A stretch of 64,000 bases of DNA, taken from contig JBBKWH010000095.1 of the NCBI GenBank assembly GCA_037968855.1, positions 11,223-75,222 on the forward strand. The letters are read 5' to 3'. Position 1 is the stretch's first letter. Each line of letters begins with the position of its first letter. Below the pieces are notes generated by a model. The model was not told the DNA's origin. It worked only from the letters and a program-made list of their open reading frames with translations, and did no database searches. Below are positions 5,693 to 53,414 of the stretch, piece after piece. The DNA comes from Moraxellaceae bacterium. GTDB taxonomy: Bacteria > Pseudomonadota > Gammaproteobacteria > Pseudomonadales > Moraxellaceae. Made by a program: the position numbers and the translations under genes.

Positions 5693-5727
5693 ACGGTTTA
5701 AGCAGGGTGTATTCTGCCATGGCACGG

Positions 5728-22771: not shown

Positions 22772-24460
22772 ATGTCTTTACTTGTCCAAATCGCCCAACG
22801 CAGCAGTGCCGGACCCAAAAGCAAGAACGATGATGCAGTGTGTATCCATATGCCGAGCGGTAGTGGACGTGCCAGCCGTAGCATGATTGCCACCATTGCC
22901 GATGGTGTGAGTGTGGCCCGTCATGGCGATGAAGCTGCCGCGATTGCAGCGCATAGCTTTTGCAGTGATTTTTTTGCCACTGACCCGCACTGGTCAATCC
23001 AAACCGCAGGGTATCGGGTGATTGAGGGCATTCATCGCTGGTTGGCAGGTCAGAGCCAGCATTATTTATACGAGGCCCACAATAGTCACCTCACCACCTT
23101 TAGCACTGTCATTGTGCAAGGCGAATCGGCTTATGTGTTTCATGTGGGTGATTCACGGGTATGGCGACTGCGCGAAGGCCAACTTGAACCTCTAACCAGC
23201 GACCACGTGATTCGTGGGATGGGGAGCAACCAACTGACCCGCGCCTTGGGCATGGAAGGTCGGATTGATGTGGATTTTCGCCAAGTTGATGTCAAAGCTG
23301 GCGACCGTTTTTTGTTGACCACCGATGGTATTCATGGCTTTGTACCCAACAACAAGTTAGTTGGATTGATTAGTGGCGATAATTTAGAAGATTGTTTAGA
23401 TGCCTTATTTGATATGGCGCAGGCGCGTGACAGTAACGACAACCAAAGTGCGCAACTGATCCAAATTGATCAAATCGACCCTGATTTACACGAAACCCAG
23501 CCCAATTATCACCTACCACCACTGCCTGATTTATTGACCGAAGGCCAACGGGTAGATGGCTATACCATCGTGCGTGAACTGCACGCCAATGCCCGCAGTA
23601 CCGTGTATCAAGCTATCCGCGAGAGCGATGGCGTACAAGTGGTGCTCAAAGCCCCTTCCCCACAACTGGCTCAAGACCACGACGCGCTACAAGCCTTTAT
23701 GCGTGAAGACTGGATTGGCCAGCGTATTGATCATCCTGATGTGGTGCGTACCTTTAGCCCTGATCCAGACCGCAAGTTTTTGTACCTGATTCAAGAGTAC
23801 CTGTCCGGTTGTAACCTACGGGTCTGGCGGCAAAACCATCCCGAAGCACCCGTGCAAACCGTGATTGGTTTGGCCCGTCCGGTGGTGCGTGCCTTACGCG
23901 CCTTGCACCGCCGCGAAACCCTGCACCAAGACATCAAGCCTGACAACCTAATTTTGCTGGACGATGGACGGGTCAAACTGATTGATCTGGGCAGCGCACG
24001 CGTCGGTAGTATTCACGACGAGCGCGCCCGACCGGGGGCTTATGAGTATGCCGCGCCCGAATATGTTTTGGGCCAACCGATTGACGGGAGGGCGGATCAA
24101 TTTGCCTTGGCGGTGAGTTTTTATGAGCTGTTAACCGGTGCATTTCCGTATGGCCCACACTATGTAGACGCCAGTACGACCAGCGATTTTAATCAACTTT
24201 TTTATACGCCAGCCAGCCAATACAATCCGCATGTACCCGCATGGATGGACGCTGCGCTCATGCGTGCCTCACACCTTGATGCCAATCTACGCTATGCTGA
24301 TTTGGGCGAATTTATGGCTGACCTTGAACGGCCAAATCCAGATCTGTCTCGTCCTAGACAGCCTTTAATTGAGCGGTCGCCGGTCAGGTTTTGGCAAACG
24401 GTCAGTGTATTGTTATTGCTTGGTCATCTGGTTTGGTTGATGATCTGGTTTAGACCATAA
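22772..24460 (+). CDS. Fusion protein: N-terminal PP2C-type Ser/Thr phosphatase domain + Ser/Thr protein kinase domain + C-terminal TM segment
   Basis: PP2C blocks (IADGVS..., LTTDGIHGFV, DNQSAQL). Kinase blocks (VVLK, HQDIKPDNLIL, DLGSARV, YAAPEY); the glycine-rich loop is degenerate. Hydrophobic tail WQTVSVLLLLGHLVWLMIWF. Confidence 0.7.
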   Translation: MSLLVQIAQRSSAGPKSKNDDAVCIHMPSGSGRASRSMIATIADGVSVARHGDEAAAIAAHSFCSDFFATDPHWSIQTAGYRVIEGIHRWLAGQSQHYLYEAHNSHLTTFSTVIVQGESAYVFHVGDSRVWRLREGQLEPLTSDHVIRGMGSNQLTRALGMEGRIDVDFRQVDVKAGDRFLLTTDGIHGFVPNNKLVGLISGDNLEDCLDALFDMAQARDSNDNQSAQLIQIDQIDPDLHETQPNYHLPPLPDLLTEGQRVDGYTIVRELHANARSTVYQAIRESDGVQVVLKAPSPQLAQDHDALQAFMREDWIGQRIDHPDVVRTFSPDPDRKFLYLIQEYLSGCNLRVWRQNHPEAPVQTVIGLARPVVRALRALHRRETLHQDIKPDNLILLDDGRVKLIDLGSARVGSIHDERARPGAYEYAAPEYVLGQPIDGRADQFALAVSFYELLTGAFPYGPHYVDASTTSDFNQLFYTPASQYNPHVPAWMDAALMRASHLDANLRYADLGEFMADLERPNPDLSRPRQPLIERSPVRFWQTVSVLLLLGHLVWLMIWFRP

Positions 24461-29008: not shown

Positions 29009-31231
29009 TTAGCCAGCCGCCTGCATTTGACTGGCTTTTTGGTAGCCTCTTGGCAATAAATGACCGCGCAGGCCACGTTTACCGCTGTAATGATCCAAGT
29101 CAATTTCTTTGAGGGTCAGTGGTCGACTACCCGCAATCAACACCAAGGCGTCTTGTGGCGCTAATGCAGCGATGGCTTGAATCGACTCACCAGCTTCTAG
29201 CTGCATCAGCTTATTGCCTTTGCCTTTGCCCATCACTGGCAATTCGCTCCGTTTAAACACCAACAATCGGCCAACTGAGGACAATACGGCAATTCGATCC
29301 ACTGTCTCGTTTAACGGCAATATCGGCATCAACTCCGCACCATCAGCCAAATTGACCACGGCCTTGCCTGCCTTGGCGTTGCTATCAAAGGTGCCCAAAT
29401 GACTGATAAAACCATAACCATGATTGCCCGCCAGCAAGATGGTTTGTTGGTCATCGCCCATCAGCACTTCGATAAAACGACTACCGGTCGGTGGCGACAG
29501 CTTACTGGTCAGTGGTTCGCCCAGACCGCGTGCCGATGGCAAGGTGGCAGCGGCAATCCCGTAACTGCGTCCAGTGGAATCCAGCACATACACCCGTTGG
29601 TTGCTCTTGCCGCTGGTGTGGCTTTGGTAGGCATCACCGGCCCGATAGTTGAGGCTATGCGCATCAACATCTGACCCTTTGGCCGAGCGAATCCAACCGG
29701 CTTGCGACAGCACCACTGTGATCGCCTCGGCGGGCATCAAGTCACTTTCTTTCAGTTCGACCGCCGCGGCACGTTGGGCAATCGGTGAACGACGGTCATC
29801 ACCATATTTTTTGGCATCGGCGGTCAGCTCGTCGCTGATCAGTTTTTTCAATGAGTCGGGATTATTCAGTTGCTCGCTAATCCGTGCTTGTTCGGCCAAT
29901 AGCTCGTCTTGCTCGCGGCGCAGTTCCATTTCTTCCAAACGCGCCAGATGACGTAGTTTTAAATCCAAAATCGCATCAGCTTGAATGCCATCTAAGCCAA
30001 ATGCTTGCATCAAGGCCGCTTTGGGCTGGTCTTCTTCCCGAATGATCCGAATCACCTCATCCAAATTCAGATAGGCAATCAACAAACCGCCCAGCACATG
30101 CAGGCGTTTTTCGATTTTGCTCAGCGCATAGCTTAAACGACGGCGCACGGTATTTTGCCGAGCCTCTAGCCATTCCAGCAACATGGTTCGAATGGATTTG
30201 ACCTGTGGCCGACCATCTAGGCCGATCATGTTCAGGTTGACCCGATAACTTGACTCAAGCTCGGTGGTGGCAAACAAATGGCTCATCAGCGCATCGGCAT
30301 CGACACGGTTGGACCGCAGCACAATCACCAAACGGGTTGGATATTCGTGGTCAGACTCGTCGCGTAGGTCAGTCACTAGCGGGAGTTTTTTGGCGTTCAT
30401 TTGATCGGCAATTTGGCTGATCACTTTGTTGCCCGACACTTGATACGGCAGTTCGCTGATGATGATTTCGTTTTTATCGACGGTATATACCGCGCGCATC
30501 CGGTAGCTGCCACGTCCGGTGGTTTGGATTTTCAACAACTCATCGGCAGGCGTGATGATCTCAGCACGGGTGGGCAAGTCGGGTGCGGGAATATAAGTGG
30601 CGAGTTTTTCGTCAGTCAGATTGGGGTTTTTCAGCAAGGCAATCGTGCCTTTGACCACTTCGCGCAGGTTATGCGGCGGAATGTCGGTGGCCATGCCAAC
30701 GGCAATGCCGGTGGTTCCGTTCAGCAAAATATTCGGCAGACGCGCAGGCAAGGTCATCGGCTCTTGCATAGAGCCATCAAAGTTGTCTTGCCACTCGACC
30801 GTGCCTTGGCCCAACTCGCTGAGCAGCGTTTCGCTATAGGCCGATAGTTTGGCTTCGGTATAGCGCATGGCGGCAAACGATTTAGGGTCATCCGGCGAAC
30901 CCCAGTTGCCCTGCCCTTCAACCAAGGGATAGCGATAGCTAAATGGCTGCGCCATCAATACCATCGCCTCATAACAGGCCGAGTCGCCATGCGGATGGTA
31001 CTTGCCCAGTACATCACCGACGGTACGAGCGGATTTTTTCGGTTTACCGCTATTTTTAAGCCCAAGCTCGCTCATGGCATACACAATGCGCCGTTGCACT
31101 GGCTTTAGGCCGTCGGCCACATGCGGCAAGGCGCGATCCATAATGACGTACATGGCGTAGTTGAGGTACGCCTGTTCGGTGAATTCGGCGACCGAACGGC
31201 TTTCGGTGGCGGCATTAACAAGACTGGTCAT
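29009..31231 (-). CDS. parC: DNA topoisomerase IV subunit A
   Basis: 740 aa, GyrA/ParC N-terminal breakage-reunion domain ([10 protein letters not shown]; the length fits ParC rather than GyrA). Confidence 0.88.
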
Positions 31232-31651
31232 GAGCGATGCGATACGGTGTTGCTAACAGTGCCCTGATCATAGGCGGTTTTGTGGCGTTTGCCCATGCGG
31301 AGGGCGTCGGGATGTGTCGTACTCCATCATTGACCAGCATGATCAGCCGTTCAGACACGACCGATTGTTGCCGGTTTTTCTTGCCCTAGAGGGTCATTTC
31401 ACGGTATAAAATCCTTAACGATTTAAAAGCATTTATCGGCAGCTAAGCAAAGGATAATGCGGGATTTATGTGCTTTTTTTCAGCACTGTATTCATGAAAA
31501 AATAGCTAAAACATCAGCATCATGTCTCGTCTAACTCCCGCCTTGCTCATCCTCACTGTGCCGATGATTTTTTGGCGTCGCAACCGACACAATCAAGACG
31601 CATAAATCGTGGTGCATATCGCTAGATATGACCAATAAGGAGGGTGCGGTG

Positions 31652-32299
31652 ATGGATCGTTTTTTGACAGTCGTTGGCTCATTTCCAACCGCTATTTTTT
31701 CGGTACTGCTGGTGATTGCCGTGCTGTATTGGTTGATTTCCATGACCGGTATGCTAGGTGATTTAGACGCCGATGGCCTTGATGCTGGCGATGGCAGCGA
31801 TGCCGATGGTTCAGCCGTAGGCGGCATGCTCGAAGCACTGGGGATTCGTGGCATCCCATTGTCGATTTTGCTCACGCTGACCTTTTTGTTTGCGTGGGTG
31901 TTTAGCTACAGCATCAGCAGTCTATTCGGTGGCTGGTGGTCTGGTGTGGTGGCGATTTTGGTCGGCGTCGCGATTATTCCAGTGGCGCTGGTGATTGGCT
32001 TGTTGATTACCGCAACGTTATTACGACCCTTTCGCGCAGCCTTTCATACCGAGCCACTACTGGCTACCGAGCTACGGGTGATTGGACAAGTCGGCGTGGT
32101 GATTTCTGGCGAGGTCAACGCCCAACAAGGCCGTGCTGAGGTGCATTTAAATGGCGCACACATGATTTTTAATGTGCGCTCAGAGACACCGCTGCATCGG
32201 GGCGATCTGGTTATTTTTATGGATTACCGTGCAGACCAACACTTGTATCGGGTGATCCCAGAAACACCAGCGCTCACCACATCGGCCATGGATATCTGA
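31652..32299 (+). CDS. YqiJ-like inner-membrane protein (DUF1449 / NfeD-like OB-fold C-terminus)
   Basis: ATG at 31652 follows AAGGAGG. N-terminal TM, acidic loop LDADGLDAGDGSDADG, two TM helices, then a C-terminal beta-rich region ...GQVGVVISGEVNAQQGRAEVHLNGAHMIFNV.... The architecture matches E. coli YqiJ. Confidence 0.6.
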   Translation: MDRFLTVVGSFPTAIFSVLLVIAVLYWLISMTGMLGDLDADGLDAGDGSDADGSAVGGMLEALGIRGIPLSILLTLTFLFAWVFSYSISSLFGGWWSGVVAILVGVAIIPVALVIGLLITATLLRPFRAAFHTEPLLATELRVIGQVGVVISGEVNAQQGRAEVHLNGAHMIFNVRSETPLHRGDLVIFMDYRADQHLYRVIPETPALTTSAMDI

Positions 32300-32407
32300 T
32301 GGCTTGAATCAGCGTCCGTATCGCGATGGATTCATCTTGATGTTTTAACATCCAACGCAGTAAGCACAGTCATCAAAAAACAGACAACACATAGGGGAAA
32401 GTAACAC

Positions 32408-34561
32408 ATGGAATGGCTCATTATGGCAGCAGTGGTTGTGGTGGTGGTTATCACCGTGATCATTGGTATTTTATTATTATTTAAGATTTTTTATCGCAAG
32501 ATCAACCAAGGCCAAGCCTTAATCAAGAACGATCTGTCCGCCACGCCCAAGGTGTATTTTACCGGTGCAATGATTTTGCCGGTCATTCACCGTGCCGAAG
32601 TGATGGACATCTCGGTGATTACCCTAGAGATCAACCGGACTGGCAAAGAAGGTCTGATCTGCCGCGACAACTTGCGTGCCGACATTACCGTGGCGTTTTA
32701 TCTACGGGTCAATGAAACCGCCGAAGACGTGTTACGCGTCGCCAAGTCGGTCGGTGTCAACCGCGCCTCAGATCGCCAAGCGGTCAACGAACTGTTTAAT
32801 GCCAAGTTTAGTGAAGCGCTGAAAACCGTCGGTAAAAAACTCGACTTTATGCAGTTGTTTGAAGAACGGCAGAATTTTCGTGATGCGATTGTCGCCACCA
32901 TTGGCGAAGACTTAAACGGTTATGTCCTCGAAGATGTGGCGATTGATTATCTTGAGCAAACGCCAAAAAGCGCGCTGGATGTCAACAACATCTTGGACGC
33001 CGAAGGCATCCGCCGCATTACTGAAATCACCGCCAAACACAATGTCGAAACCAACCGACTAGAGCGTGATCAAGAGCTAGAGATTCAACGCAAAAACGTC
33101 TCGGCACGCGAAGCCGGTCTAGAGCTAGAGCGCAGCCAAGCCGATGCCGAAGCGCGCCAAGCCCGCGAAGTGCAAACCTTAAAAATGCGCGAGCAGTCGG
33201 CCACCGCACAAGTGCAGCAAGAAGAGCGCTCCAAGATCGAAGCCTCACGGATCAAAACCGATGAAGAACTGGCGATTGGTGAAGAGAACAAAAATCGCCA
33301 AATCGAACTGGCCGAAAAAGCCCGTCAACGTGCCATTCAAATTGAAGATGTGCGGATTCAACAGGCACGCGAGCTAGAAGACGTCAATCGTCAACGCGCG
33401 GTCGAAGTCGAACGCATCAGCATGCAAAAAGAGCTGGAGCAAGAACGCAAAGAAATTGCCGAGATCACTAGTCAGCGCATTGCAGTCGAACGGCATGTGG
33501 CTGAAGAAGAAGAAAACATCAAAGACGTGCGCAACCGCTCCGAAGCCGAACGCAAAAAAGTGGTCTCACTGACCGCCGCCAGCGCCGAAGCCGAAGAAGA
33601 CAAACTCAAACGAGTCAAAGCCGCTGAAGCCACCTTTGAAGCCTCCAAACTTGAGGCCGATGAAGTGCTCATCCGCGCCCAAGCTGAGTTTGACGCTGCC
33701 GACAAAAAAGCTGCATCGGAAGAAAAACAAGCCCGTGGTCGCCAAGCACTGGCCGCCGCCGATGGTCTGGCCGCCGCCCAAGTGATGGAAGCACGTAGCC
33801 AAGCCGAAAAAGTCGCCGGACTGACCCAAGCTGAAGTCAAACTGGCGATGGCCAAAGCCCAAGAAGAAACCGGCATGGCCGATGTACGCGTGCTGGATCA
33901 ACGCCTACAAATCGAAGCCGATGGCGAAGAAAAACAAGGCCACGCCAAAGCCATGGCGCGGCAAGAAATGGCTAAAGCCGAGCAAATGGCCGGTCTGGCT
34001 GAAGCTGATGTGATGGAAAAACGTCTGACCGCGCAAGCCGAAGGCGAACGCCGCATGGGTGAAGCCAAAGCCGTGGCACGCGAAGCGATGGCAAAAGCCG
34101 ACCAACAAGCCGGTCTGGCCGAAGCCGACGTGATGGAAAAACGCATGACCGCGCAAGCCGAAGGTGAGCGCAAACTGGGCGAATCCAAAGCCGCTGCGAT
34201 TGAGGCCATCTCGATTGCCGATGCCAACGGCCTGCTCGCCAAGCTAAAAACCTACGAAAATCTGTCCAGCGACGCCCGTTCGTTTGAAGAGTTCCGCATG
34301 GGTCTGGCCCTGCATGAAAAAGAAATCTTGGCCCATATCGACGCCCAGCGCACCGTGGCACAAGAGAACGCCAAAATCATGGCTGCCGCTATGCAAAACG
34401 CCAAGTTTGAACTGATTGGCGGCGACAGTGATGTGTTTGAAAAACTCACCACAGGCTTGGGTTATGGCAAAGCGGTGGAAGGCATCTTGTCTAAATCGCC
34501 ACAACTGCAAGCAGTACTAGCGGGCATTGCCAACCGCGTGCATGACCATAAAAGCGACTAA
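32408..34561 (+). CDS. Flotillin-like SPFH/band-7 protein (YqiK-like), N-terminal TM anchor, long E/A/Q/R-rich coiled coil
   Basis: 717 aa. TM AAVVVVVVITVIIGILLLF, an SPFH core (VITLEINRTGKEGLICRDNLRADITVAFYLRV), then flotillin-type EA-rich repeats. Confidence 0.8.
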   Translation: MEWLIMAAVVVVVVITVIIGILLLFKIFYRKINQGQALIKNDLSATPKVYFTGAMILPVIHRAEVMDISVITLEINRTGKEGLICRDNLRADITVAFYLRVNETAEDVLRVAKSVGVNRASDRQAVNELFNAKFSEALKTVGKKLDFMQLFEERQNFRDAIVATIGEDLNGYVLEDVAIDYLEQTPKSALDVNNILDAEGIRRITEITAKHNVETNRLERDQELEIQRKNVSAREAGLELERSQADAEARQAREVQTLKMREQSATAQVQQEERSKIEASRIKTDEELAIGEENKNRQIELAEKARQRAIQIEDVRIQQARELEDVNRQRAVEVERISMQKELEQERKEIAEITSQRIAVERHVAEEEENIKDVRNRSEAERKKVVSLTAASAEAEEDKLKRVKAAEATFEASKLEADEVLIRAQAEFDAADKKAASEEKQARGRQALAAADGLAAAQVMEARSQAEKVAGLTQAEVKLAMAKAQEETGMADVRVLDQRLQIEADGEEKQGHAKAMARQEMAKAEQMAGLAEADVMEKRLTAQAEGERRMGEAKAVAREAMAKADQQAGLAEADVMEKRMTAQAEGERKLGESKAAAIEAISIADANGLLAKLKTYENLSSDARSFEEFRMGLALHEKEILAHIDAQRTVAQENAKIMAAAMQNAKFELIGGDSDVFEKLTTGLGYGKAVEGILSKSPQLQAVLAGIANRVHDHKSD
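33870..34229 (+). repeat. Three tandem about-120-nt (40-aa) in-frame repeats inside the flotillin gene
   Basis: 33990-34109 versus 34110-34229 are roughly 85% identical at nucleotide level (GLAEADVMEKRLTAQAEGERRMGEAKAVAREAMAKADQQA / GLAEADVMEKRMTAQAEGERKLGESKAAAIEAISIADANG). A more diverged copy lies upstream. Confidence 0.7.
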
Positions 34562-34649
34562 CGGGTCTGATTGACTCATTAGGCATCGGTCATTGCATGA
34601 TGGCCGATGCCCTACGCCACCTTATTCGCGTGACCACATTAAAAAATCA

Positions 34650-37600
34650 ATGGAATCTCACAACATGTCCGACACGATCCGCCCAAACGACCCGCAGCAA
34701 GACCAGAGCCATCTGGAACAACTCGTGCGTGAAGGCTCATCGTTTGAGACCATTTTGCGCCGCCTGCGCGATCAAGGCGAACACCTGCGTCAAGGCATTC
34801 GCCAACTCAATACTGAACGAACTGCCGTGTTTGGCAGCGTCAATATGGCGATCTTGGGTCGGGCGCGTGTGCGAACCGAACAAAACGCCATTGCACGCGA
34901 TGTGATCCAACTGGGTCAGCAACTGTTGTTTGGTTTTAACCTGCAATTGGGCCTGCGCAAGACCTTAAGCGTCGATGACGTGTTTGTGCTGTATCACTTG
35001 GACGAACAAGACGATCAGTTTGAACTGACTGCGATCAACAGCGCCGGTACATTTTTGGCCGATGGCGGATTTTTGCGTGATTTTAATGAGTTGCAGCAGT
35101 ATTACAGCCAAGCCTTTTTAAGCCAACTGATCCGTATGGACGGCAAGCTGTTGGCGGTTTTTCAGATTGGCGAAAAGGTCACTGATATTCGGGTGTTTCG
35201 TTGGGAGTTGTACCCCAACGGCAGCGTCAACCGCTATATCGACAACCGTGGCGAGCGCGATCTTAAATTTCCAGATCGCTTTGGCTTTAAATGGCAAGTC
35301 GCCGGACGGGATCGCCAAGTGCAAGGCCGCCAGCCGCACCTGAATATTCTGGACACGATTTTTGTTGATAACTTACGCGGTGACATCACCGTCAAAATCG
35401 AAAACAACACCAGCACGGGACAGGGCATTTTTTCTGATCCGGTCGAGATCGACTCGCAGTCTTTAGACGATGCCAGCTTTGAATACGCAGATCTGGGTAG
35501 CATGATTGTGCTGCGCATCTTGCCGTTTACCGAGACCACATGGCGTTATTACATCTATAACCGCGATACCCAAACGGTCTTGCGTGAGGATCAACTGGCT
35601 GGCTCCATCGTGCCGCTACCGGAGAATCACGGGCTGATTTTTCCGGCGGGGTTTTATCTATCAACCGGTGAACTAAAAACCTACGATATCCCCGAGCAAG
35701 ACTTTCGCTTTGTACGCAGCATTCGCGCACCGAATGGCGAAGACGTGCTGTTTGCTTTTTTTGCCCAAAAAACCGGCCACGTCTTGCTGTATCGCTACAA
35801 CTTAATCAGCAAGCAAACCGACACGCCGATGATCGGTCATGGCTATGCCCTACACGACAGTGGCCGCTTGGCGATTTTTCATGCCGAAGACGAACCAACC
35901 CAAGTGCATCCGCTGCAACTGTGGCATACGCCGTTTATGGCCGACCGTGTGCACGCCGAACAAGCCGATCAAAACCAACATCCACTAGGCAAAATTGGCA
36001 ACCCAGAATTAGTACGTGGCATTGCCGAACTCAACACCATCATCAAACTAATCGAGCAGCCAACCGGCAGCGCCCTGCATTTTCATCGCTTGATCAAAAC
36101 CATTGACCGCACGCTGGATCAATGTTTTTGGCTGGATGATTTGGCCGAGATCAGCTTGCAGCCGCAATTGATCGAGGCACGGCAAAGCGCCGAGTTGATG
36201 ATTGACGAATACGACAAAGTCCAAGCGATTCGCCAGCAATCCAATCAAGCGATTGATAGCGCCGCCACCACCCAAGCGCAACTGCTACGCGACCTCAAGC
36301 CCAACCAGTGGAAAAGCCCAGATGCCTTTGTCAGTTATCTAAAAATCCTGCGCGACCATCACGGTCAGTTGATGACGCTTAAAGATCGCCGCTATATCGC
36401 CCTTGAACGCTTACAGCAGTTAGAACAAGCGCTGCAACAGGCGCAAGATGATCTGACGATCAAAACCTTTGACTTCTTAGCCAGCGAGCAAGCCCTAGGC
36501 GGCTATCGCAACACCTTGGCCGAACTGTCCGAACAGGTCCGCCAAGCCGAGCGCCGCGAGCAACTGGCCACGCTGGTGGAACGCTACCGCGAGCTAACCC
36601 AAGGCTTGGACATGATCCAAAGCATGTTGGCCTCCATGAGCGGCGATAACACCACCCAACAAACCCAAATTGCCGACAACATCTCCAGCATTTACGCCAG
36701 TATCAACCAACAACGCGCGCACGCCGAAGTGCGCTTGCGCGAGCAAGGCAGCGCCGAAGCACGGGCGCAATTTGCCGCGCGGATGCGCCTGTATGAGCAA
36801 AGTCTGGCCAATGGCATTAATGCGCTGACAGGGCCAGAAGACTGCGACCCGCTGCTGACCCGAATGCTGGATCAACTACAAGAACTCGAAAGCCAGTTTG
36901 GCGAATTTGACGACTTTTTGGCCCTGATCTTGGCCGAGCGCGAACGCAGTCAAGAGAGCATTGAAGCACGCCGCCAACAACTGCAAGAACAACGTCAGCG
37001 CCGCATCAACACCTTAAGCGATGCCAGCACGCGTATTTTACAAAACATCCGCCAGCGTACCGAACGCTTTGGGCAATTGGCCGAACTGCATGCGTTTTTT
37101 GCCAGCGATGCGATGGTACAAAAAGTGCGGCAAATGGCCGAGCAACTGCGCCAGATGGGCGCAAGCCTCGAAGCCGATAGCGCCGCCAGCCAACTGCGCG
37201 CCGCGCAAGATGGCGCGATGCGTAGCGTGCGTGACCGCGCTGATATCTTTGAAGATGGCGGACAGGTGATCAAGCTTGGCCCGCGCCATCGCTTTAGTGT
37301 TAATCAACAGCAACTTGATCTAACTCTGTTGGTGCGTGACGGCCAACCGATGCTGCACCTGACCGGCACCCAGTTTTATGAACCGCTGCACGATGCCAGA
37401 CTGACCCCGCTGCAAGCCTATTGGGACATCAACCTACCGTCCGAGTCGCCACAGGTCTATCGGGCCGAATACTTGGCCTATCTGGTCATGCAACAACTGC
37501 TCATACAACAACAGGGCAAACCACAGCAAACGCCCATCAATGTGGCCGACCTTGCCGCGCTAACGGATTATATTCGCCAGTTTGCCTCGCCACGCTACCA

Positions 37601-40169
37601 AGAAGGCTACGAAAAAGGCATCCACGATGCCGATGCCGCGCTGATCGTCAGCACCTTATGGCCCGCGCAACAACAAGCCGGACTGCTGCGCTACTCACCG
37701 ACTGCCCGCGCCATTGCCATGTTGTATTGGAGCGACCTTAACCAGCCTGACCAGACCAAGACAGACAGCGCCAAGACAAACAGCACCGAGCAAGCCAGCA
37801 GTCTATTGGCCCGTTGTCGCTCGGCTGGCACGCTCAAGACTGTGCTGGGCAGTGATCATTTGCAACGCAAGCTGAGCGCGCAACTATTGCCTACACTGCA
37901 CAGCTTTTGCAGTAGTTTTGAATTGCCTGCCAGCAGCAGTCAGATCAGTCAAGCCGCCGATTATTTGGTGCAACAACTGGCGAATGGCGACAGTGCAAAC
38001 AGCAATCTCAGCAGCGCAAAGCCCAGCTTTGTGATCAGCCAATACGCCAGCGATTTGGTCAGTCAGTTTAAGCAACAACTGAGCAGCCACCAACGCGAAT
38101 TCGAACAGGCACTAAGTGCCGCCAAAGGCCAACACGGTCTACGCTGGCAGATCACTGCCGAATGGCTACGCGCTTTTGCCGAGCAGCTAGATCAACCGGC
38201 TGCTCTACACTATTTGCCTGAAGCCATCGCTCTAATTAATCAAGACAGTACCCTGCTCACGCAAACCCAACATGTGAAACTCAGCTTTGAGATTAGCGGG
38301 TTGATCGGCCAGCATCCGCGCATTCACAGCCAGACCTTAAGTCTGCAATTAGACGAATTTGCCGAGCGATTGGATCATCATCAACACGTGGTGATGGCCG
38401 GTTGGCAGCAACTTCAACAGGTGCGCCAAGTGGTACTGCAAGAACAACGCGAACGCCTGCGCCTAGACGAATACACGCCCAAGCCGTTGTCCTCTTTTGT
38501 GCGCAATAAATTGATTTCCGAAAGCTATCTGCCGCTGATTGGGGACAATCTCGCCAAGCAAATTGGCACCGTGGGCGAAAACCGCCGTACCGATCTGATG
38601 GGTTTGCTGATGATGATCTCGCCACCGGGTTATGGCAAAACCACCTTGATGGAATACGTCGCCAGCCGTCTGGGCTTGATCTTTATGAAGATCAATTGCC
38701 CAAGCTTAGGCCACGAGGTCACCTCATTAGACCCTGAACGCGCACCGCACTCCACGGCCCGCGCCGAGTTAATCAAGCTTAACCTTGCCTTAGAAATGGG
38801 CAATAACGTGATGCTGTATTTGGATGATATCCAACACACCAACCCAGAGTTTTTGCAAAAGTTTATCTCGTTGTGTGATGGCAGCCGCCGCATTGAGGGC
38901 ATCTGGCAAGGCCGCACCCAGACCTATGATTTGCGCGGTAAGCGCTTTTGTGTGGCAATGGCGGGCAACCCGTACACCGAAAGCGGCGAGGTGTTTAAGA
39001 TTCCAGACATGTTGGCCAACCGTGCCGACATCTACAACTTGGGCGATGTACTGAGCGGCATGGAAGACGTGTTTGCCCTGTCGTATATCGAAAACGCGAT
39101 TAGCTCTAGCCCGATCCTTGCGCCACTAGCGACCCGTGGTATGGAAGACTTTTATCGCTTTGCCGATCTAGCGCGTGGCCGCGAGGTCGCCAGTACCGAC
39201 TTTGAACACGACTACAGCGCCGCCGAACGACAAGACATTGTCAACACCCTGCAAAACCTCTACACCGTGCGCGATACCGTGCTTAAGGTCAATCAAGCCT
39301 ATATCGCCTCAAGCGCACAGGCCGATGCCTACCGCACCGAGCCAAATTTTCGCTTGCAAGGCAGTTACCGCAACATGAACCGCTTGGCCGAAAAAATCTC
39401 GCCCATCATGACTGCCGCCGAGCTACAACGCTTGGTCGATGATCATTACGTCGGCGAAGCACAATTGCTAACCCAAGGCGCAGAAGAAAACCTACTCAAA
39501 CTCAAAGAAATGCGCGGCACTTTAAACCCAGATGAAGCCCAACGCTGGGCCGAGATCAAACTGGAATATCAACGCCGTCAGCAAGCCGGTGGTGATCAAG
39601 ACACCGGCGTTAAAGTGGTCCGGCAATTGGGCTTTATTGCCGAGGGGCTGAACAATGGCTTAAGCCACCTCAAGCAAGCAGCCAGCGAACAACAGGTTCA
39701 TCATCGTCAACTGTACGAACATGGGATCAGCCAACACAGCGCCAGCCTTGAACAAGCCAAGCAGCAACAGAGCCATCTGCATGACCTGATCAGCCAATTG
39801 ATCAACCGACTGGGCGAGCAATTGCATCAACTGGATCTTGCACCCAACATTGCCGTCAACGTGGCCGAGCCAGTGGGCATGCAAGAAGCCATGCGCCAAC
39901 TCACCGCAGTGCTGAATCAAAGCCTACTGGCCCTACAACCGACCGAACAACAACTTAGCCAAGCCAGCAGCATCAACAACAACGCCAAACAAACCCAACA
40001 AGCCGTCGAGGATGTCAAAACCTCGCTCCAGCAACTGGGCCAACAAATCAGCGAACTGAAGCTCAGCAGTGTTGGCGTGCAGCAACACGCACCTGCATCA
40101 TCGCCAACCTACATTGAATATCCTGATGGGCCACGGCCACCGCCTTTGCCACCTAAGGTAACGGAATAG
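34650..40169 (+). CDS. Giant (about 1840 aa) coiled-coil protein with a single dynein/MoxR-type (AAA_5-like) ATPase cassette and Pro-rich C-terminus; function unknown
   Basis: Continuous ORF. Walker A ISPPGYGKTT (about 38624-38650), Walker B LYLDDIQH (about 38811), sensor MAGNPY, and an Arg in PDMLANRADIY. Long Q/E/R-rich heptad-like stretches flank the cassette. The N-terminal 480 aa is not coiled-coil. Tail ...YPDGPRPPPLPPKVTE. The start is uncertain (TTG 34593, ATG 34650 or 34665; no strong SD). Confidence 0.7.
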   Translation: MESHNMSDTIRPNDPQQDQSHLEQLVREGSSFETILRRLRDQGEHLRQGIRQLNTERTAVFGSVNMAILGRARVRTEQNAIARDVIQLGQQLLFGFNLQLGLRKTLSVDDVFVLYHLDEQDDQFELTAINSAGTFLADGGFLRDFNELQQYYSQAFLSQLIRMDGKLLAVFQIGEKVTDIRVFRWELYPNGSVNRYIDNRGERDLKFPDRFGFKWQVAGRDRQVQGRQPHLNILDTIFVDNLRGDITVKIENNTSTGQGIFSDPVEIDSQSLDDASFEYADLGSMIVLRILPFTETTWRYYIYNRDTQTVLREDQLAGSIVPLPENHGLIFPAGFYLSTGELKTYDIPEQDFRFVRSIRAPNGEDVLFAFFAQKTGHVLLYRYNLISKQTDTPMIGHGYALHDSGRLAIFHAEDEPTQVHPLQLWHTPFMADRVHAEQADQNQHPLGKIGNPELVRGIAELNTIIKLIEQPTGSALHFHRLIKTIDRTLDQCFWLDDLAEISLQPQLIEARQSAELMIDEYDKVQAIRQQSNQAIDSAATTQAQLLRDLKPNQWKSPDAFVSYLKILRDHHGQLMTLKDRRYIALERLQQLEQALQQAQDDLTIKTFDFLASEQALGGYRNTLAELSEQVRQAERREQLATLVERYRELTQGLDMIQSMLASMSGDNTTQQTQIADNISSIYASINQQRAHAEVRLREQGSAEARAQFAARMRLYEQSLANGINALTGPEDCDPLLTRMLDQLQELESQFGEFDDFLALILAERERSQESIEARRQQLQEQRQRRINTLSDASTRILQNIRQRTERFGQLAELHAFFASDAMVQKVRQMAEQLRQMGASLEADSAASQLRAAQDGAMRSVRDRADIFEDGGQVIKLGPRHRFSVNQQQLDLTLLVRDGQPMLHLTGTQFYEPLHDARLTPLQAYWDINLPSESPQVYRAEYLAYLVMQQLLIQQQGKPQQTPINVADLAALTDYIRQFASPRYQEGYEKGIHDADAALIVSTLWPAQQQAGLLRYSPTARAIAMLYWSDLNQPDQTKTDSAKTNSTEQASSLLARCRSAGTLKTVLGSDHLQRKLSAQLLPTLHSFCSSFELPASSSQISQAADYLVQQLANGDSANSNLSSAKPSFVISQYASDLVSQFKQQLSSHQREFEQALSAAKGQHGLRWQITAEWLRAFAEQLDQPAALHYLPEAIALINQDSTLLTQTQHVKLSFEISGLIGQHPRIHSQTLSLQLDEFAERLDHHQHVVMAGWQQLQQVRQVVLQEQRERLRLDEYTPKPLSSFVRNKLISESYLPLIGDNLAKQIGTVGENRRTDLMGLLMMISPPGYGKTTLMEYVASRLGLIFMKINCPSLGHEVTSLDPERAPHSTARAELIKLNLALEMGNNVMLYLDDIQHTNPEFLQKFISLCDGSRRIEGIWQGRTQTYDLRGKRFCVAMAGNPYTESGEVFKIPDMLANRADIYNLGDVLSGMEDVFALSYIENAISSSPILAPLATRGMEDFYRFADLARGREVASTDFEHDYSAAERQDIVNTLQNLYTVRDTVLKVNQAYIASSAQADAYRTEPNFRLQGSYRNMNRLAEKISPIMTAAELQRLVDDHYVGEAQLLTQGAEENLLKLKEMRGTLNPDEAQRWAEIKLEYQRRQQAGGDQDTGVKVVRQLGFIAEGLNNGLSHLKQAASEQQVHHRQLYEHGISQHSASLEQAKQQQSHLHDLISQLINRLGEQLHQLDLAPNIAVNVAEPVGMQEAMRQLTAVLNQSLLALQPTEQQLSQASSINNNAKQTQQAVEDVKTSLQQLGQQISELKLSSVGVQQHAPASSPTYIEYPDGPRPPPLPPKVTE

Positions 40170-40246
40170 CATTGATTCGCTTAAAAAAACAAGGCACACC
40201 CAAGCGCACCCTGTTGAAAAAACTGTCAGATACAGCCCAACCCGAT

Positions 40247-40795
40247 TTAAGCTTTGGCCCACTCTGTGGTGGTTTTTGCGCCGCGTGCATGCAGCAATTT
40301 GAGCGTGGCTTCTTCTTCTGGCAGCGCATCAGACCATTCGATCAGGTCAAAATCGACATCAAACCATAGATCACTAATCGACGACAAAATGGTCATGCCA
40401 TCATCATCAAGTTTGTTAGGATCAACACCAGCATCCAGCAACTTGGTCACCACGGGTACACAGGCTGCGCTGGCAGCATCCCACAACGGGCCAAAAAACT
40501 CCTCAACATCCCACATGTGAATATTGGCTTTGGCCGCAATTAAAGCATCAACAATAGCCATATATGGGGTGAGCAAACGGGCTTTTTCTTCTTCTGACAA
40601 TGGCGCTTCGGTTTCGTAGCCATGTACCACCGCTTCCCACCACGAAAACAACTGATCACAGATCTGGGTCAACGGTGGGCCAAGTTCTGGGTCCAAAAAA
40701 TTTGGGTTCACATCGGCGGCCAAAAGCTGCTTGACGGCTTCGACATCGAGCGCGCTAATCGCTTGGGTCAGGGCCATTTGTTGTTGGTCTAACAT
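40247..40795 (-). CDS. Hypothetical cytoplasmic protein with ankyrin-like repeats
   Basis: ATG at 40795 follows GAGGAG. Contains ...VKQLLAADVNPNFLD... and ...VTKLLDAGVDPNKLDDDGMTILS..., which resemble ANK repeats. Convergent with the giant gene. Confidence 0.4.
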   Translation of the reverse strand: MLDQQQMALTQAISALDVEAVKQLLAADVNPNFLDPELGPPLTQICDQLFSWWEAVVHGYETEAPLSEEEKARLLTPYMAIVDALIAAKANIHMWDVEEFFGPLWDAASAACVPVVTKLLDAGVDPNKLDDDGMTILSSISDLWFDVDFDLIEWSDALPEEEATLKLLHARGAKTTTEWAKA

Positions 40796-41176
40796 GACGA
40801 CGAACTCCTCAAAAAAGTTCGGCCATTTTGTCACGTCTGATATGAATGCGCCGTGACCTTTGACAGTTTTTCGTGATTTGATCGTTAAATAACGGAGCGG
40901 CATGCGGTGTTGTCACAATTGATTGGGCCATTCCCCATCAAAAATATTTCAAAAACAGCTAGGTGATCCATCACCCGATCATTGATTACTGGTCATACAT
41001 GTTCTTTTATAGGCTGATGGTTTTACCAACCACAACAGCATCAACCACGCGTTACATCACGGCTAAAACAAGGCGATCCGGCCAGACGCTACTGGCCGAG
41101 ATCGCAACAGGACAATCCGATTCATCAACATATTGATGCAGGCATGCCGCCATCACGACGGGAAAGATCACCTGCA

Positions 41177-49419: not shown

Positions 49420-50097
49420 TTAGGGTAAGCGCACACCCTCTACATCCAAACGATGCAAAGCCAATACAGCCTGTGTACGGTTTTGCACGCCTAACTTACG
49501 AAAAATTGCGGTCATATGCGCTTTGATGGTGGCTTCGGAAACGTTGAGGGTATAGGCGATTTGTTTATTCAATTGGCCTTCGGCCAGCATCAGCAACACT
49601 CGAAACTGCTGCGGTGTCAGGTCACGCAAACGGTCTGCGGTGTCGAGTTCGTCTTGGGCCGGATGATGCGCTGGATTGTGTGCAGGGTTGCCATGCGCCA
49701 GATGACCGTGTGGATACCAGTCGTCACCATTTAACACGGTTTGGATCACCGCCAGCATCTCGTCGGGTGCAGCAGATTTGCGAATATAGGCCGCCGCGCC
49801 ATGTGCCATCGCCCGTTGAATCACCACCGCTTCTTCGTGTGCGGAAATGACAATCACTGGCAAGCTGGGATAATGCGCGCGCACATGTACGAGTGTAGAA
49901 AACCCTGATGCATCCGGTAGATGCAGATCGAGCAACAGGAGGTCTGGCACGTGTTGCGCTAAAGCGTCGTGCAGGCTAGCGACTGTGCCCACACCAAGCA
50001 CACGTGCATCCGGTCGTCCTTGTCGCACGGCTCGCATGAGTGCGTCACGAAACAGGGGGTGATCATCCGTAATCAAAATATTCATCGTGGCAAGCAT
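49420..50097 (-). CDS. NarL/FixJ (LuxR-type HTH) response regulator, CrbR-like
   Basis: REC domain (ILITDDHPLFRDAL...LLLDLHLPDASG), an unusual His/Pro-rich linker (GNPAHNPAHHPAQ), and a C-terminal LuxR HTH (LTPQQFRVLLMLAEGQLNKQIAYTLNVSEATIKAHMTAIFRKLGV). Confidence 0.75.
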   Translation of the reverse strand: MLATMNILITDDHPLFRDALMRAVRQGRPDARVLGVGTVASLHDALAQHVPDLLLLDLHLPDASGFSTLVHVRAHYPSLPVIVISAHEEAVVIQRAMAHGAAAYIRKSAAPDEMLAVIQTVLNGDDWYPHGHLAHGNPAHNPAHHPAQDELDTADRLRDLTPQQFRVLLMLAEGQLNKQIAYTLNVSEATIKAHMTAIFRKLGVQNRTQAVLALHRLDVEGVRLP

Positions 50098-50106
50098 CAG
50101 ACCTGA

Positions 50107-50205
50107 CGATTGGGGGTGGTCTGACTATACCGATTGTTGTGCGCGATGCGATAGGTTGTTTGTGCGGTGGGGGTGGATGTGGGCTTGTGGGGCTGAGGGT
50201 TTTGT
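50107..50205 (+). other. G-run-rich (GT-rich) tract with G-quadruplex potential
   Basis: GGGGGTGG...GGTGGGGGTGGATGTGGGCTTGTGGGGCTGAGGG at the boundary between core-GC DNA and the low-GC islet. Confidence 0.4.
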
Positions 50206-50360
50206 TGTTTACTGTTGGTTGGGTTGCATAAGATCGTCTTTGAATTGATAAATTTTTAATGTTATTGGGTTTATCAGTTTTTGAATGGGCTCTTATTTGT
50301 CAGGGTGACACATAAGAGTAGTTAGCAATTATTGCTCCAGCTTTTATTTGAGGTAAAAAT

Positions 50361-51197
50361 ATGTCAGATAGAGAATTAGATATTACGAAATTTTCTTATG
50401 AGTCTTATCGCAAGTTAAAGAAAAATCTTGGAGAGTTTGATGCGGTAGTCGAGTGTAATGAAATTGCTATCAGAGAGTTTATTGAGAAAGCACAAGCTAA
50501 AGATGCTGGCGATTATATAAAAAATTTATCATTTAAGCATAGAGTGAAAGTCGATGCAGTAGATTTTATAAAATTTGGTTCAAGAATAAGGCATTACTAT
50601 CTTACCTCTGTTTTTCAACAATCAGAACAATTCCTGAAGGACTTTAAAGAAGAATGGAAGCTTTACTTCCCCAACAAAGAATGGTTAGAGATCAAAAGTG
50701 GTGAAACAATCCTTCAAAACACTCTAAGGACTCTTTCTTTAAGAATTTCATCTGACCTAATAGAATTTTATGAGTATTATAGATTAGTCAGAAATCATAT
50801 GTCCCATAATGATAGGGATATCGATAAGCTAAGATCTCTCCTCAGAAAAACCCAAGAAAACAAAAATGAATTTTTAAGCGATTTAAATTTATCTGGCACA
50901 CCAAACTCACTAGAGACTATTGGTTTTGATGACTTTTTAATATTAACAAATATTGTTAAACATATTGCGTTTTCTATATGCTCACAATCTAAACCAGACA
51001 ACAATAAAATTGCAGAAGCACTATTTGAACACTCAAAAAAAAATAATGGAAGCGCATACAAGGGTTTAAAAAAATTAAAAAATAATGAAAAAAGATACAA
51101 CAATGCTTTAAAAAGCTTTATCATAACCACGTTTGGTAGGTTTAGCTCTACGGATATTGAAGAAGTTGTAAGTGAGTTAAAACGTTTGCTAGCTTAA
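50361..51197 (+). CDS. Hypothetical protein on a low-GC islet; candidate HEPN/Abi2-like (abortive-infection-type) protein
   Basis: 278 aa, about 30% GC against roughly 50% in the flanks. Contains YYRLVRNHMSHND (R-x4-H). ATG with GAGGT SD. Confidence 0.45.
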   Translation: MSDRELDITKFSYESYRKLKKNLGEFDAVVECNEIAIREFIEKAQAKDAGDYIKNLSFKHRVKVDAVDFIKFGSRIRHYYLTSVFQQSEQFLKDFKEEWKLYFPNKEWLEIKSGETILQNTLRTLSLRISSDLIEFYEYYRLVRNHMSHNDRDIDKLRSLLRKTQENKNEFLSDLNLSGTPNSLETIGFDDFLILTNIVKHIAFSICSQSKPDNNKIAEALFEHSKKNNGSAYKGLKKLKNNEKRYNNALKSFIITTFGRFSSTDIEEVVSELKRLLA

Positions 51198-51255
51198 TGG
51201 CTAAAGCGTCCCCTCCACAAGCCAACTTGATGAGTTGGTTTGTGAAGGAGAAATT

Positions 51256-51283
51256 ATTGGTTCGATTCCAATAGCAGGCTCCA
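51256..51283 (+). other. tRNA 3'-end-like fragment (T-arm + acceptor 3' strand + CCA), possible att-site relic
   Basis: ATTGG-TTCGATT-CCAAT-AGCAGGC-T-CCA. No canonical D and anticodon arms or 5' acceptor strand could be assembled upstream. Confidence 0.4.
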
Positions 51284-51418
51284 TCTCTAGCTTTCTCTTC
51301 AAGCGCTTTAAGTACCATAACGCCCAAGCCACTTATGGCTCACTGCTTGATAGCTCCAGCGGATTCTCATATTTTGATTCCACTGTGTAGTGTTACGACT
51401 TGCCCAATTAATTAGACC

Positions 51419-51449
51419 AAAAAAAGACAGCCCAAAAGCTGTCTTTTTT
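51419..51449. terminator. Bidirectional rho-independent terminator between islet ORF and acs
   Basis: AAAAAAGACAGC-CCAAAA-GCTGTCTTTTTT. Confidence 0.65.
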
Positions 51450-51461
51450 CCCCTCACCCAA

Positions 51462-53414
51462 TCAAGCACTCTTCGCCGGATACACCACCGCAATCAGGTG
51501 ATCCACCACCGATGGATCGGCCAGCGTCGAGGTATCACCCAGCCCATCCAACTCATTGGCCGCAATCTTGCGCAAAATCCGCCGCATAATTTTGCCAGAA
51601 CGCGTCTTGGGCAACCCCACCGCCCAATGAATCGCATCGGGCGTAGCAATCGGGCCAATCTCGTGGCGTACAAAATCGCGTAGCGCCTTGCGTAGCTCCT
51701 CGCTTTCTTCCACACCCGCCTGCAAGCTCACAAACGCACAAATGCCCTGCCCTTTAATGTCATGCGGCATACCGACCACAGCGGCTTCAGCCACCGCTTT
51801 ATGCAACACCAAGGCGCTTTCCACTTCGGCCGTGCCCAAACGATGGCCCGACACGTTCAGCACGTCGTCCACACGGCCGGTAATCCAATAGTCACCATCG
51901 GCATCGCGGCGCGCGCCATCGCCAGTAAAGTACATGCCTTTAAAGGTACTAAAATAGGTTTCAATAAAGCGCTGATGATCGCCATACACCGAGCGCATTT
52001 GCGCAGGCCACGAATCAATCAGCACCAAGTTGCCTTCGCACGTGCCTTCCAATAGATTGCCTTCAGCATCGACAATCGCCGGTTGCACGCCAAACATCGG
52101 GCGCATCGCCGAACCTGCTTTCATGCGACCTGCGTTGGGTAGCGGTGCAATCAACACGCCGCCGGTTTCGGTCTGCCACCATGTATCGACAATCGGGCAA
52201 CGCGACTCGCCGACCACGCGGTAATACCAATCCCAAGCTTCAGGGTTGATTGGCTCACCCACCGAACCGAGCAAGCGCAAGCTGCTGCGATTACTCTGCC
52301 GTACAAAGTCATCGCCTTCACGCATCATGGCGCGAATCGCGGTGGGTGCGGTGTACAAGATGGTCACGTCGTGCTTATCGACAATCTGACCAATCCGCGC
52401 CCACGTTGGATACTGCGGCACGCCTTCAAACATCAAGGTGGTCGCGCCGTTCGACAGTGGGCCGTACAACAAATAACTATGGCCGGTAATCCAGCCCACA
52501 TCAGCGGTACACCAGTACACGTCGTCTTCTTTTAAATCAAAGACTTCTTTAAAGGTGGTGGTGGCATACACCAAATAACCGCCGGTGGTATGCAGTACGC
52601 CTTTGGGTTTGCCGGTACTGCCGGAGGTATACAAAATAAATAGCGGATCTTCGGCATTCATCGCCACAGCGGGGCAATCGTCCGAGGCGTCAGCGATCAG
52701 TTCGTGATACCAACGGTCGCGGCCTTCATGCCAGACCACATCGCCGCCAGTGCGATGCACCACAATCACGTCAGTGACTTGCTCGCCACCAGCAATGGCG
52801 ACGGCGGCATCGACGTTGGCTTTGAGCGGGATGCTTTTGCCACCGCGTAAGCCTTCGTCGGCGGTGATGACCACATGCGAGTCACAATCGACAATCCGAC
52901 CGGCCAGCGCATCGGGTGAGAAACCACCAAACACCACCGAATGCACTGCGCCAATGCGGGTACAGGCCAGCATTGCCACCGCCGCTTCGGGGATCATCGG
53001 CATATAGATGGTGACGCGGTCGCCTTTTTTGACGTTTAAGGCGTTGAGCGCATTGGCAAAACGGCAGACTTCGTCGTGTAGCTCGCGGTAAGAAATAATC
53101 TTGTGATCAGCGGGATGGTCGCCTTCCCAAATGATCGCAGGCTTATCAGGATGGGTGGCTAAATGGCGGTCTAAGCAGTTGGCCGAGACGTTAAGTTCGC
53201 CGTCTTCAAACCATTTAATTCTAAAGTCTTCGACCTGATAGGACACATCACGCACCACGCTAAACGGCTTGATCCAATCCACACATTGCGCCTTGTCACG
53301 CCAATAGGCGCTGCTATCTTGCACCGAGGCCTGATACTGCTGTTGATACTGCTCAGGGGTCAGGTTGGCTTTTTCGGCAAAGCTGGCCGAAGGCAAAAGA
53401 TGATGTTCCGTCAT
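51462..53414 (-). CDS. acs: Acetyl-CoA synthetase
   Basis: Near full-length alignment to E. coli Acs ([20 protein letters not shown], ...[13 protein letters not shown]). ATG at 53414 (MTEHHLLP...). Confidence 0.9.

Follow-up and report, generated by a model that had tools for sequence, protein, structure and literature searches.

The locus described here lies in a 64,000-nucleotide stretch of DNA (hereafter the window) from contig JBBKWH010000095.1 of a Moraxellaceae bacterium (GenBank assembly GCA_037968855.1), and it consists of three genes that follow one another on the + strand at positions 31652–32299, 32408–34561 and 34665–40169, as read from the list of open reading frames (ORFs) and their translations. 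Gene 1 (31652–32299) encodes a polytopic membrane protein of 215 amino acids (aa) with a soluble C-terminal domain and a distant likeness to the YqiJ/YuaF (short NfeD) proteins, gene 2 (32408–34561) encodes a 717-aa SPFH flotillin of the YqiK type, and gene 3 (34665–40169) encodes a soluble giant ATPase of 1,834 aa, assigned by Pfam and by its homologues to the DUF3686/DUF7902 family. This three-gene operon is real and widely conserved, and it has been linked to the PspA membrane-stress system earlier by comparative genomics, so that the window holds one more copy, from the Moraxellaceae, of an operon that had already been noted. In the following we describe the three products, the conservation of their order, the structured spacer between the second and third gene, and the function that their association may suggest.

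The boundaries of the genes could be set with small adjustments. The ORF list begins gene 1 at 31628, and we prefer the ATG at 31652, which has an AAGGAGG Shine-Dalgarno sequence 8 nt upstream; gene callers on identical metagenome contigs also give a protein of 215 aa. For gene 3 there are two candidate starts five codons apart, the ATG at 34650 (1839 aa), which was the choice of the first-pass annotation of this DNA, and the ATG at 34665 (1834 aa), which is the start given by the gene callers and the better fit to the family alignment. The spacers measure 108 nt between genes 1 and 2 and 88 nt between genes 2 and 3, or 103 nt when the start at 34665 is taken, and the three co-directional genes with the spacers first reported are therefore borne out by the ORF list and the translation.

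Pfam and NCBIfam gave nothing usable on genes 1 and 2, and for this reason both were compared directly with YqiJ and YqiK of Escherichia coli. The product of gene 1 carries three to four hydrophobic segments (approximately residues 3–38, 62–91 and 90–131) followed by the soluble C-terminal domain. It matches none of Pfam DUF1449, YqiJ_N or NfeD even at E ≤ 10, and a plain BLASTP against YqiJ is not significant; among 22 members of its family, two match YqiJ_N weakly (0.02). The alignment of the gene 1 family against YqiJ by hhalign nevertheless reaches a probability of 91% (E 1e-6) over 135 columns that span both the transmembrane (TM) region and the C-terminal domain, and the topology of the protein as well as its position directly upstream of an SPFH gene are consistent with the YqiJ/YuaF/short NfeD family. 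From its sequence, gene 1 is thus best called a distant YqiJ/short-NfeD-like protein.

Gene 2 stands much closer to its E. coli relative. BLASTP aligns it with YqiK at 2e-42 and 27% identity over 518 aa, the SPFH region included, and the profile of its family matches YqiK at 99.9% by hhalign. A single TM segment is found at residues 1–32, and the long C-terminal region is Ala/Glu-rich and helical, the YqiK alignment extending across the YqiK coiled coil. Gene 2 itself shows no match to Pfam Band_7 (PF01145) even at E ≤ 10, and the orthologues P0155 and P0159 as well as the Natronoglycomyces neighbour do match PF01145; the NCBIfam FloT model matches gene 2 weakly, sequence and profile searches of the PDB gave no match, and its homologues are annotated in the source records as “flotillin family protein” or “YqiK”. 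By these sequence comparisons gene 2 is a genuine flotillin of the YqiK type. The first-pass annotation had described genes 1 and 2 as the familiar NfeD-like/DUF1449 plus SPFH pair of the yqiJ–yqiK type; the kinship holds by direct comparison with YqiJ and YqiK, while “familiar” says too much of a divergent pair that is without Pfam matches. Inside gene 2, Tandem Repeats Finder reports a 120-bp tandem repeat on the + strand at 33915–34193 (2.3 copies, 77% matches), also visible in the translation, where it encodes repeated 40-aa units rich in Ala and Glu. The orthologues of Marinobacter and Halomonas are 645–690 aa long against 717 aa here, and the repeat may explain much of this extra length.

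The giant product of gene 3 belongs to families that Pfam already holds. PF12458 (DUF3686) scores 565.4 bits (cut-off 25, E 8.9e-170), covers positions 2–447 of the 448 of the model and corresponds to nucleotides 34785–36125 (+), and PF25472 (DUF7902) scores 65.7 bits (cut-off 26, E 4.4e-18) at 36489–36743 (+), within a helical segment that a heuristic profile marks as prone to coiled coils. A MoxR/AAA_5-type AAA+ module follows at 38442–39584 (+), recognized by the four motifs given below, and Pfam AAA_5 scores 21.8 bits there, just under the 22-bit cut-off. The four ATPase motifs quoted in the first-pass annotation are exact in the translation between 38622 and 39029: Walker A PPGYGKTT (38622–38645), Walker B LYLDDIQH (38814–38837), sensor-1 MAGNPY with its GNP (38958–38975), and PDMLANRAD (39003–39029), in which PDMLANR (39003–39023) holds the conserved Arg. 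The Walker A, the DD of Walker B, the GNP of sensor-1 and the Arg of PDMLANR are invariant among homologues down to approximately 30% overall identity, and it is this invariance which argues, at the level of sequence, that gene 3 would be a working ATPase. Its homologues share the architecture and the length (~1,600–1,900 aa), a search with the N-terminal 700 aa matched 767 clusters (50% identity) in a set of 1.84 billion proteins, and no hydrophobic or TM segment was found in gene 3, which marks it as a soluble protein.

An AlphaFold model of residues 1200–1700, built from a 53-sequence alignment with a mean predicted local distance difference test score (pLDDT) of 81.9, has the MoxR ATPases CbbQ and NorQ as its best fold matches, followed by midasin and dynein, and Foldseek agrees; the earlier assignment to a dynein/MoxR type of ATPase was thus right. 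Searches of the PDB with the sequence and profile of gene 3 returned P-loop matches only, and nothing for the DUF3686 region, which Ravi et al. describe as beta-propeller repeats (PMC11237479). The same first reading had called the protein mostly coiled coil, and this was overstated. In a crude heuristic of heptads and conservation, only residues ~480–865 are prone to coiled coils, and conserved globular blocks occupy residues 1–470, 866–1020 and 1260–1640.

The evidence that these three genes belong together comes from their order in other genomes. In a scan of one genome per species a relative of gene 3 was found in at least 567 species, with Stenotrophomonas maltophilia, Pseudomonas, Xenorhabdus, Myxococcus and Marinobacter among the carriers, and the best 80 loci were kept. 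Seven of the 80 are cut by a contig end, which leaves 73 informative loci. In 72 of these, gene 3 is preceded by homologues of gene 1 (24–43% identity) and gene 2 (39–77% identity), with order and strand unchanged. The exception is a metagenome-assembled genome (MAG) of the Polyangiaceae, L080, which keeps genes 2 and 3 and has a hydrolase-like gene in the place of gene 1; this gene (L080:30-752) encodes a 240-aa protein upstream of the flotillin, in the sole informative locus without gene 1. The 80 loci span six major lineages, namely Gamma-, Beta- and Zetaproteobacteria, Myxococcota, Actinomycetota (Nocardiopsis) and a Clostridia MAG. The order of genes 1, 2 and 3 is also kept in ten more loci, which include Bacteroidota, Actinomycetota and Lachnospiraceae: those of Hahella and Vreelandella, the more distant ones of Carboxylicivirga, Natronoglycomyces, a Lachnospiraceae MAG and one unassigned contig, three that were reached starting from the flotillin side, and one on the megaplasmid pQBR103, judged from annotation only. 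The spacers are short across the loci, and some stop and start codons overlap. The homologues of the giant protein are therefore consistently neighbours of SPFH and NfeD-like genes, a point on which the first-pass annotation had proposed to check its reading, and comparison of these sequences clearly points to the three genes as a conserved functional unit.

An operon of the same make-up was described by Ravi et al. (mSystems 2024, PMC11237479; bioRxiv 2020.09.24.301986) as a partner of a CesT/Tir–PspA pair. In their account, the operon comprises a band-7/flotillin protein, a beta-propeller–coiled-coil–AAA+ protein and a 3TM protein of the YqiJ/YuaF type, with a PLD gene in some operons, and the abbreviated form, which lacks the PspA dyad, is widespread and may act with PspA encoded elsewhere. 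Its Table S3 gives for Dokdonia the order CesT_Tir, YqiJ-YuaF, Band-7 with coiled coil and flotillin, and beta-propeller with coiled coil and AAA-ATPase. The window locus shares the three proteins and their order. Because searches of the 64-kb window for PspA and YjfI found nothing, it matches the abbreviated form, with neither the CesT/Tir (DUF2170/YjfI)–PspA dyad nor PLD in the 64 kb. The first-pass annotation had been aware of no described family in which a giant AAA_5-type ATPase is the third gene of such an operon, and had named a curated family that already describes this architecture as what would overturn its proposal; with Pfam DUF3686 and DUF7902 and the operon of Ravi et al. in existence, the novelty it claimed is not upheld. 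In the available portion of that paper the ATPase is called only a “novel AAA+ ATPase”, its MoxR clade and the intergenic hairpin discussed below do not appear, and no experiments on the three-gene operon are reported. Our literature searches likewise returned nothing relevant on DUF3686 or PF12458, or on flotillin linked with MoxR or with “DNA repair ATPase”.

Genes that accompany the module were collected by clustering of the flanking ORFs, followed by tblastn across the loci. PspA lies directly upstream of the module in at least 29 loci and the DUF2170/YjfI (CesT/Tir-like) protein upstream in at least 25, a 107-aa protein accompanies the module in ~14 loci, a PLDc_2 protein lies downstream on the same strand in ~17, and a rhomboid protease gene adjoins the module, usually downstream, in ~12. 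A Zn-ribbon protein of ~180 aa (Zn_ribbon_TFIIB-like) is found in several loci. Its gene is inserted between genes 2 and 3 in five Burkholderiales loci (L064, L065, L072, L073 and L076, at ~5380–5960) and is convergent downstream in Hahella and Vreelandella (L001:13318–13869; L002:13044–13598). Neither the rhomboid nor the Zn-ribbon gene is named as a partner of this operon in the available portion of Ravi et al. (PMC11237479). On pQBR103 of Pseudomonas fluorescens SBW25 (L091, NC_009444.1, 86.4–103.3 kb) the module comes right after yjfKLMC-like genes, which are DUF2491, DUF350, DUF1190 and glutathionylspermidine synthase, and this copy offers a tractable experimental system. The 64-kb window contains none of these accessory genes, and its locus is the bare three-gene core.

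The spacer between the flotillin and ATPase genes holds a perfect 13-bp stem-loop at 34582–34611 (+), 21 nt after the stop codon of gene 2, with a folding free energy (dG) of −21.2 kcal/mol and no U-tract. A stem of 10 bp without a T-run had been reported here at 34584–34609; the element and the missing T-run were confirmed, and the stem proved longer and stronger. The 112-nt spacer sequence of the window folds with z = −3.2. Across the loci, with spacers delimited by the ends of tblastn hits and z-scores taken against shuffles that kept mononucleotide content only, the gene 2–gene 3 spacer is structured (median z −2.26, 55% below −2, n = 60) and the gene 1–gene 2 spacer is not (median z +0.64, 5% below −2, n = 61; Mann-Whitney p = 5e-12). 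Compact hairpins with a dG of −15 kcal/mol or lower are present in 36 of 56 loci, mostly 10–60 nt past the flotillin stop, and a T-rich tail follows in only 5–8 of those 36. The view that the hairpin is not a canonical terminator is upheld, and its counterpart recurs in other taxa. A reading of the element as a repetitive extragenic palindromic (REP)-like repeat was ruled out by its single copy in the window. The recurrent stable hairpin after the flotillin stop codon appears to be a new addition to the description of the operon, being absent from the available portion of Ravi et al. (PMC11237479). The likeliest role is that of a leaky or partial terminator, or of a structure that protects or stabilizes the 3′ end; it would probably lower read-through or stabilize the upstream transcript, and thereby set the ratio of flotillin to ATPase so that the scaffold proteins exceed the ATPase.

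Several known systems resemble parts of the module. The yqiJ–yqiK genes of E. coli have the order of genes 1 and 2, membrane partner then flotillin; the homology between gene 2 and YqiK extends over 518 residues, and that between the gene 1 family and YqiJ is remote. YqiK is, however, 164 residues shorter than gene 2, and no ATPase gene lies downstream of the pair in E. coli K-12, where sibD/ibsD are found instead. The MoxR systems (the CbbQ–CbbO Rubisco activase, NorQ–NorD and RavA–ViaA) provide the best structural matches of the gene 3 ATPase module and share with it, in sequence, the “GNP” of sensor-1 and an Arg after the sensor-1 strand, whereas the gene 3 ATPase differs in being fused to ~1,250 N-terminal residues and in a Walker B with DD, not DE. 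In HflK/HflC–FtsH, too, an SPFH scaffold of the inner membrane works with an AAA+ ATPase, but FtsH, a protease of the classical AAA clade, carries a TM anchor of its own, and gene 3 is soluble, MoxR-like and without a protease domain. In the pspA–ydjGHI operon of Bacillus subtilis the SPFH protein YdjI is tied to a polymer of the PspA/ESCRT-III family (PMC8581546, PMC10936438), although this operon has no AAA+ ATPase. Vps4 and ESCRT-III may serve as an analogy, an AAA+ ATPase that remodels a membrane polymer; Vps4 is of the classical AAA clade with an MIT domain, unlike gene 3.

Bacterial flotillins are widely studied, but an energy-consuming partner for them is not known. The module ties the flotillin/NfeD pair to a large ATPase with hardly any exceptions, and thereby gives a genetic handle on the building, opening and recycling of flotillin assemblies and on how SPFH scaffolds are connected with PspA. 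Between FloA and NfeD there is direct contact, the OB-like domain of NfeD binding the coiled coil of the flotillin, and in Staphylococcus aureus the pair is an ATP-independent holdase for unfolded clients (PMC11222466); in B. subtilis PspA is brought to the membrane by an SPFH protein (PMC8581546). From these two findings, the strict linkage to the ATPase and the frequent co-operonic PspA and YjfI, we infer that the module carries out an ATP-driven remodelling of the flotillin/NfeD scaffold, or release of its clients, in inner-membrane damage control, and we hold the chances of this to be about even. By homology to characterized flotillin–NfeD pairs, gene 2, with its one N-terminal helix anchor, and gene 1 would assemble into an oligomeric scaffold at the inner membrane, on its cytoplasmic side. 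The MoxR-type AAA+ domain of gene 3 probably forms a ring, and its DUF3686 domain and helical arm would probably dock onto the scaffold or its clients, so that ATP hydrolysis would assemble, open or disassemble the scaffold or free the clients held there. Since PspA and YjfI are co-operonic with the module in many genomes, it most likely acts in membrane damage control beside a PspA/ESCRT-III-like system; the conclusion that Ravi et al. (PMC11237479) drew from gene context agrees with such a membrane-stress function. The window locus is most likely the minimal three-gene form of this widespread envelope-stress module, and its PspA system, if the genome has one, would be encoded outside the 64 kb.

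Some of our results weigh against this interpretation. The Walker B of gene 3 is DD, and not the canonical hhhhDE, throughout the family. DnaA carries the same “DDIQ” motif and hydrolyses ATP. MoxR ATPases normally partner with a VWA-domain protein, and no member of the VWA Pfam family was found among the called neighbours on the identical contigs or at the distant loci. The AlphaFold model of gene 2, from 20 sequences, is poor, a continuous helix at residues 198–664 with a low confidence (pLDDT 58). Searches of the window by tblastn, with PspA and YjfI queries from Hahella, returned no PspA, YjfI, PLD, rhomboid or Zn-ribbon gene, so the link to PspA is indirect for this copy. Our literature searches also found no experimental study of any module member. 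A bolder form of the proposal makes gene 3 the dedicated motor of flotillin assemblies, with an AAA+ ring on long arms that opens or dismantles the scaffold on demand and the hairpin fixing the stoichiometry of scaffold and motor. We offer it tentatively and regard it as possible, with the odds against it; if true, this would be the first case of energy-dependent regulation in a flotillin microdomain, and it would give bacteria a parallel to the Vps4–ESCRT-III logic that ties SPFH scaffolds to membrane repair by PspA.

A closely related explanation is membrane protein quality control, in which the flotillin/NfeD pair holds damaged or unfolded membrane-associated proteins and the ATPase releases, refolds or extracts them, comparable to FtsH in its HflK/C cage. 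It overlaps with scaffold remodelling and differs only in the substrate of the ATPase, clients and not the scaffold. The S. aureus holdase (PMC11222466) fits it, CbbQ and NorQ of the MoxR group are described in databases as remodellers of client complexes, and the rhomboid protease genes noted above would suit it too, but these adjoin a minority of loci and are missing from the window, Pfam finds neither a protease nor a canonical chaperone domain in gene 3, and no client is known; we consider it rather unlikely. The first-pass annotation had also raised an anti-phage module. In this or another conflict system, infection would be sensed by the ATPase, which would set off an effector acting on the membrane or as a nuclease, and the flotillin would serve as platform. 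The PLDc_2 protein resembles the defence nucleases DrmC and MkoC at the level of the generic PLD domain, a TerB-domain gene adjoins the module in one Bacteroidota locus, and one copy rides on the megaplasmid pQBR103. Against these stand the empty search of PADLOC-DB 2.0, where none of genes 1, 2 and 3 has a match at E ≤ 0.01, the count of 0 homologues in 50,697 phage records, and the 13 of 72,556 plasmid records with a homologue, which are mostly chromids or megaplasmids. Sequence identity roughly follows taxonomy, the dominant accessory genes are PspA and YjfI, and the window copy sits near parC and transporter genes in a housekeeping setting with no defence genes nearby, so that a defence role seems improbable and the suggestion is not supported.

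The databases point in yet another direction, since Pfam names DUF3686 “ATPase involved in DNA repair” and NCBI names such proteins “DNA repair ATPase”, and gene 3 would then be a repair enzyme that merely adjoins a flotillin operon. The label alone speaks for this, together with parC lying divergently upstream in the window, but the parC neighbour is not kept in other genera (Hahella, Vreelandella and the distant loci). Across the related loci gene 3 invariably adjoins genes for membrane proteins. Searches of gene 3 gave no DNA-binding, nuclease or SMC/Rad50-type domain, matches to RuvB are weak and confined to the P-loop, the top structural matches are MoxR chaperone-type ATPases, and the literature searches gave no paper that mentions DUF3686 or PF12458. 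We therefore reject this explanation, for which neither a domain nor the context gives support, as hardly credible, and the name “DNA repair ATPase” is probably misleading.

Around the module, parC occupies 29009–31231 on the − strand as the divergent neighbour of gene 1, and the intergenic leader between them (31232–31651) presumably holds the module promoter. The first-pass coordinates of the leader are correct and its length is 420 nt, not 400 nt. The leader gave no Rfam match of note and, in a promoter pattern search, no sigma-54-like site; on its + strand there is no strong sigma-70 consensus, a sigma-70 scan being no better than one of shuffled sequence. Downstream, the convergent gene first reported is present and encodes an ankyrin-repeat protein (40247–40903, −). 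The interval that separates gene 3 from the ankyrin gene, stop codon to stop codon, holds a terminator-like hairpin with a T-run on the − strand (40188–40215), as placed by a consensus scan and the sequence itself; because GAAAAAAC comes after the stem when the + strand is read, it is not a canonical terminator of gene 3.

The ankyrin gene is left out of the module because no homologue of it was found among the 80 related loci. Two ankyrin genes lie just upstream of the module in the distant locus L090 (1–3978), and one member of the gene 3 family, P0404, has ankyrin repeats fused to a DUF3686 ATPase; ankyrin proteins may be occasional partners of the module. On the near-identical metagenome contig L003 an extra gene of the PNPOx family stands between the ATPase and ankyrin genes (17831–18439), and it is missing from the window (40170–40246), so the ATPase–ankyrin junction varies at the strain level. 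Elsewhere in the window the GC content dips to 0.42 at 50001–52000, against ~0.51 in other parts, around the ORF 50361–51197, and the low-GC DNA there may be a recent acquisition. At 22772–24460 (+), PP2C phosphatase and Ser/Thr kinase domains occur together in a single polypeptide of 562 aa, according to the Pfam annotation of the identical contigs.

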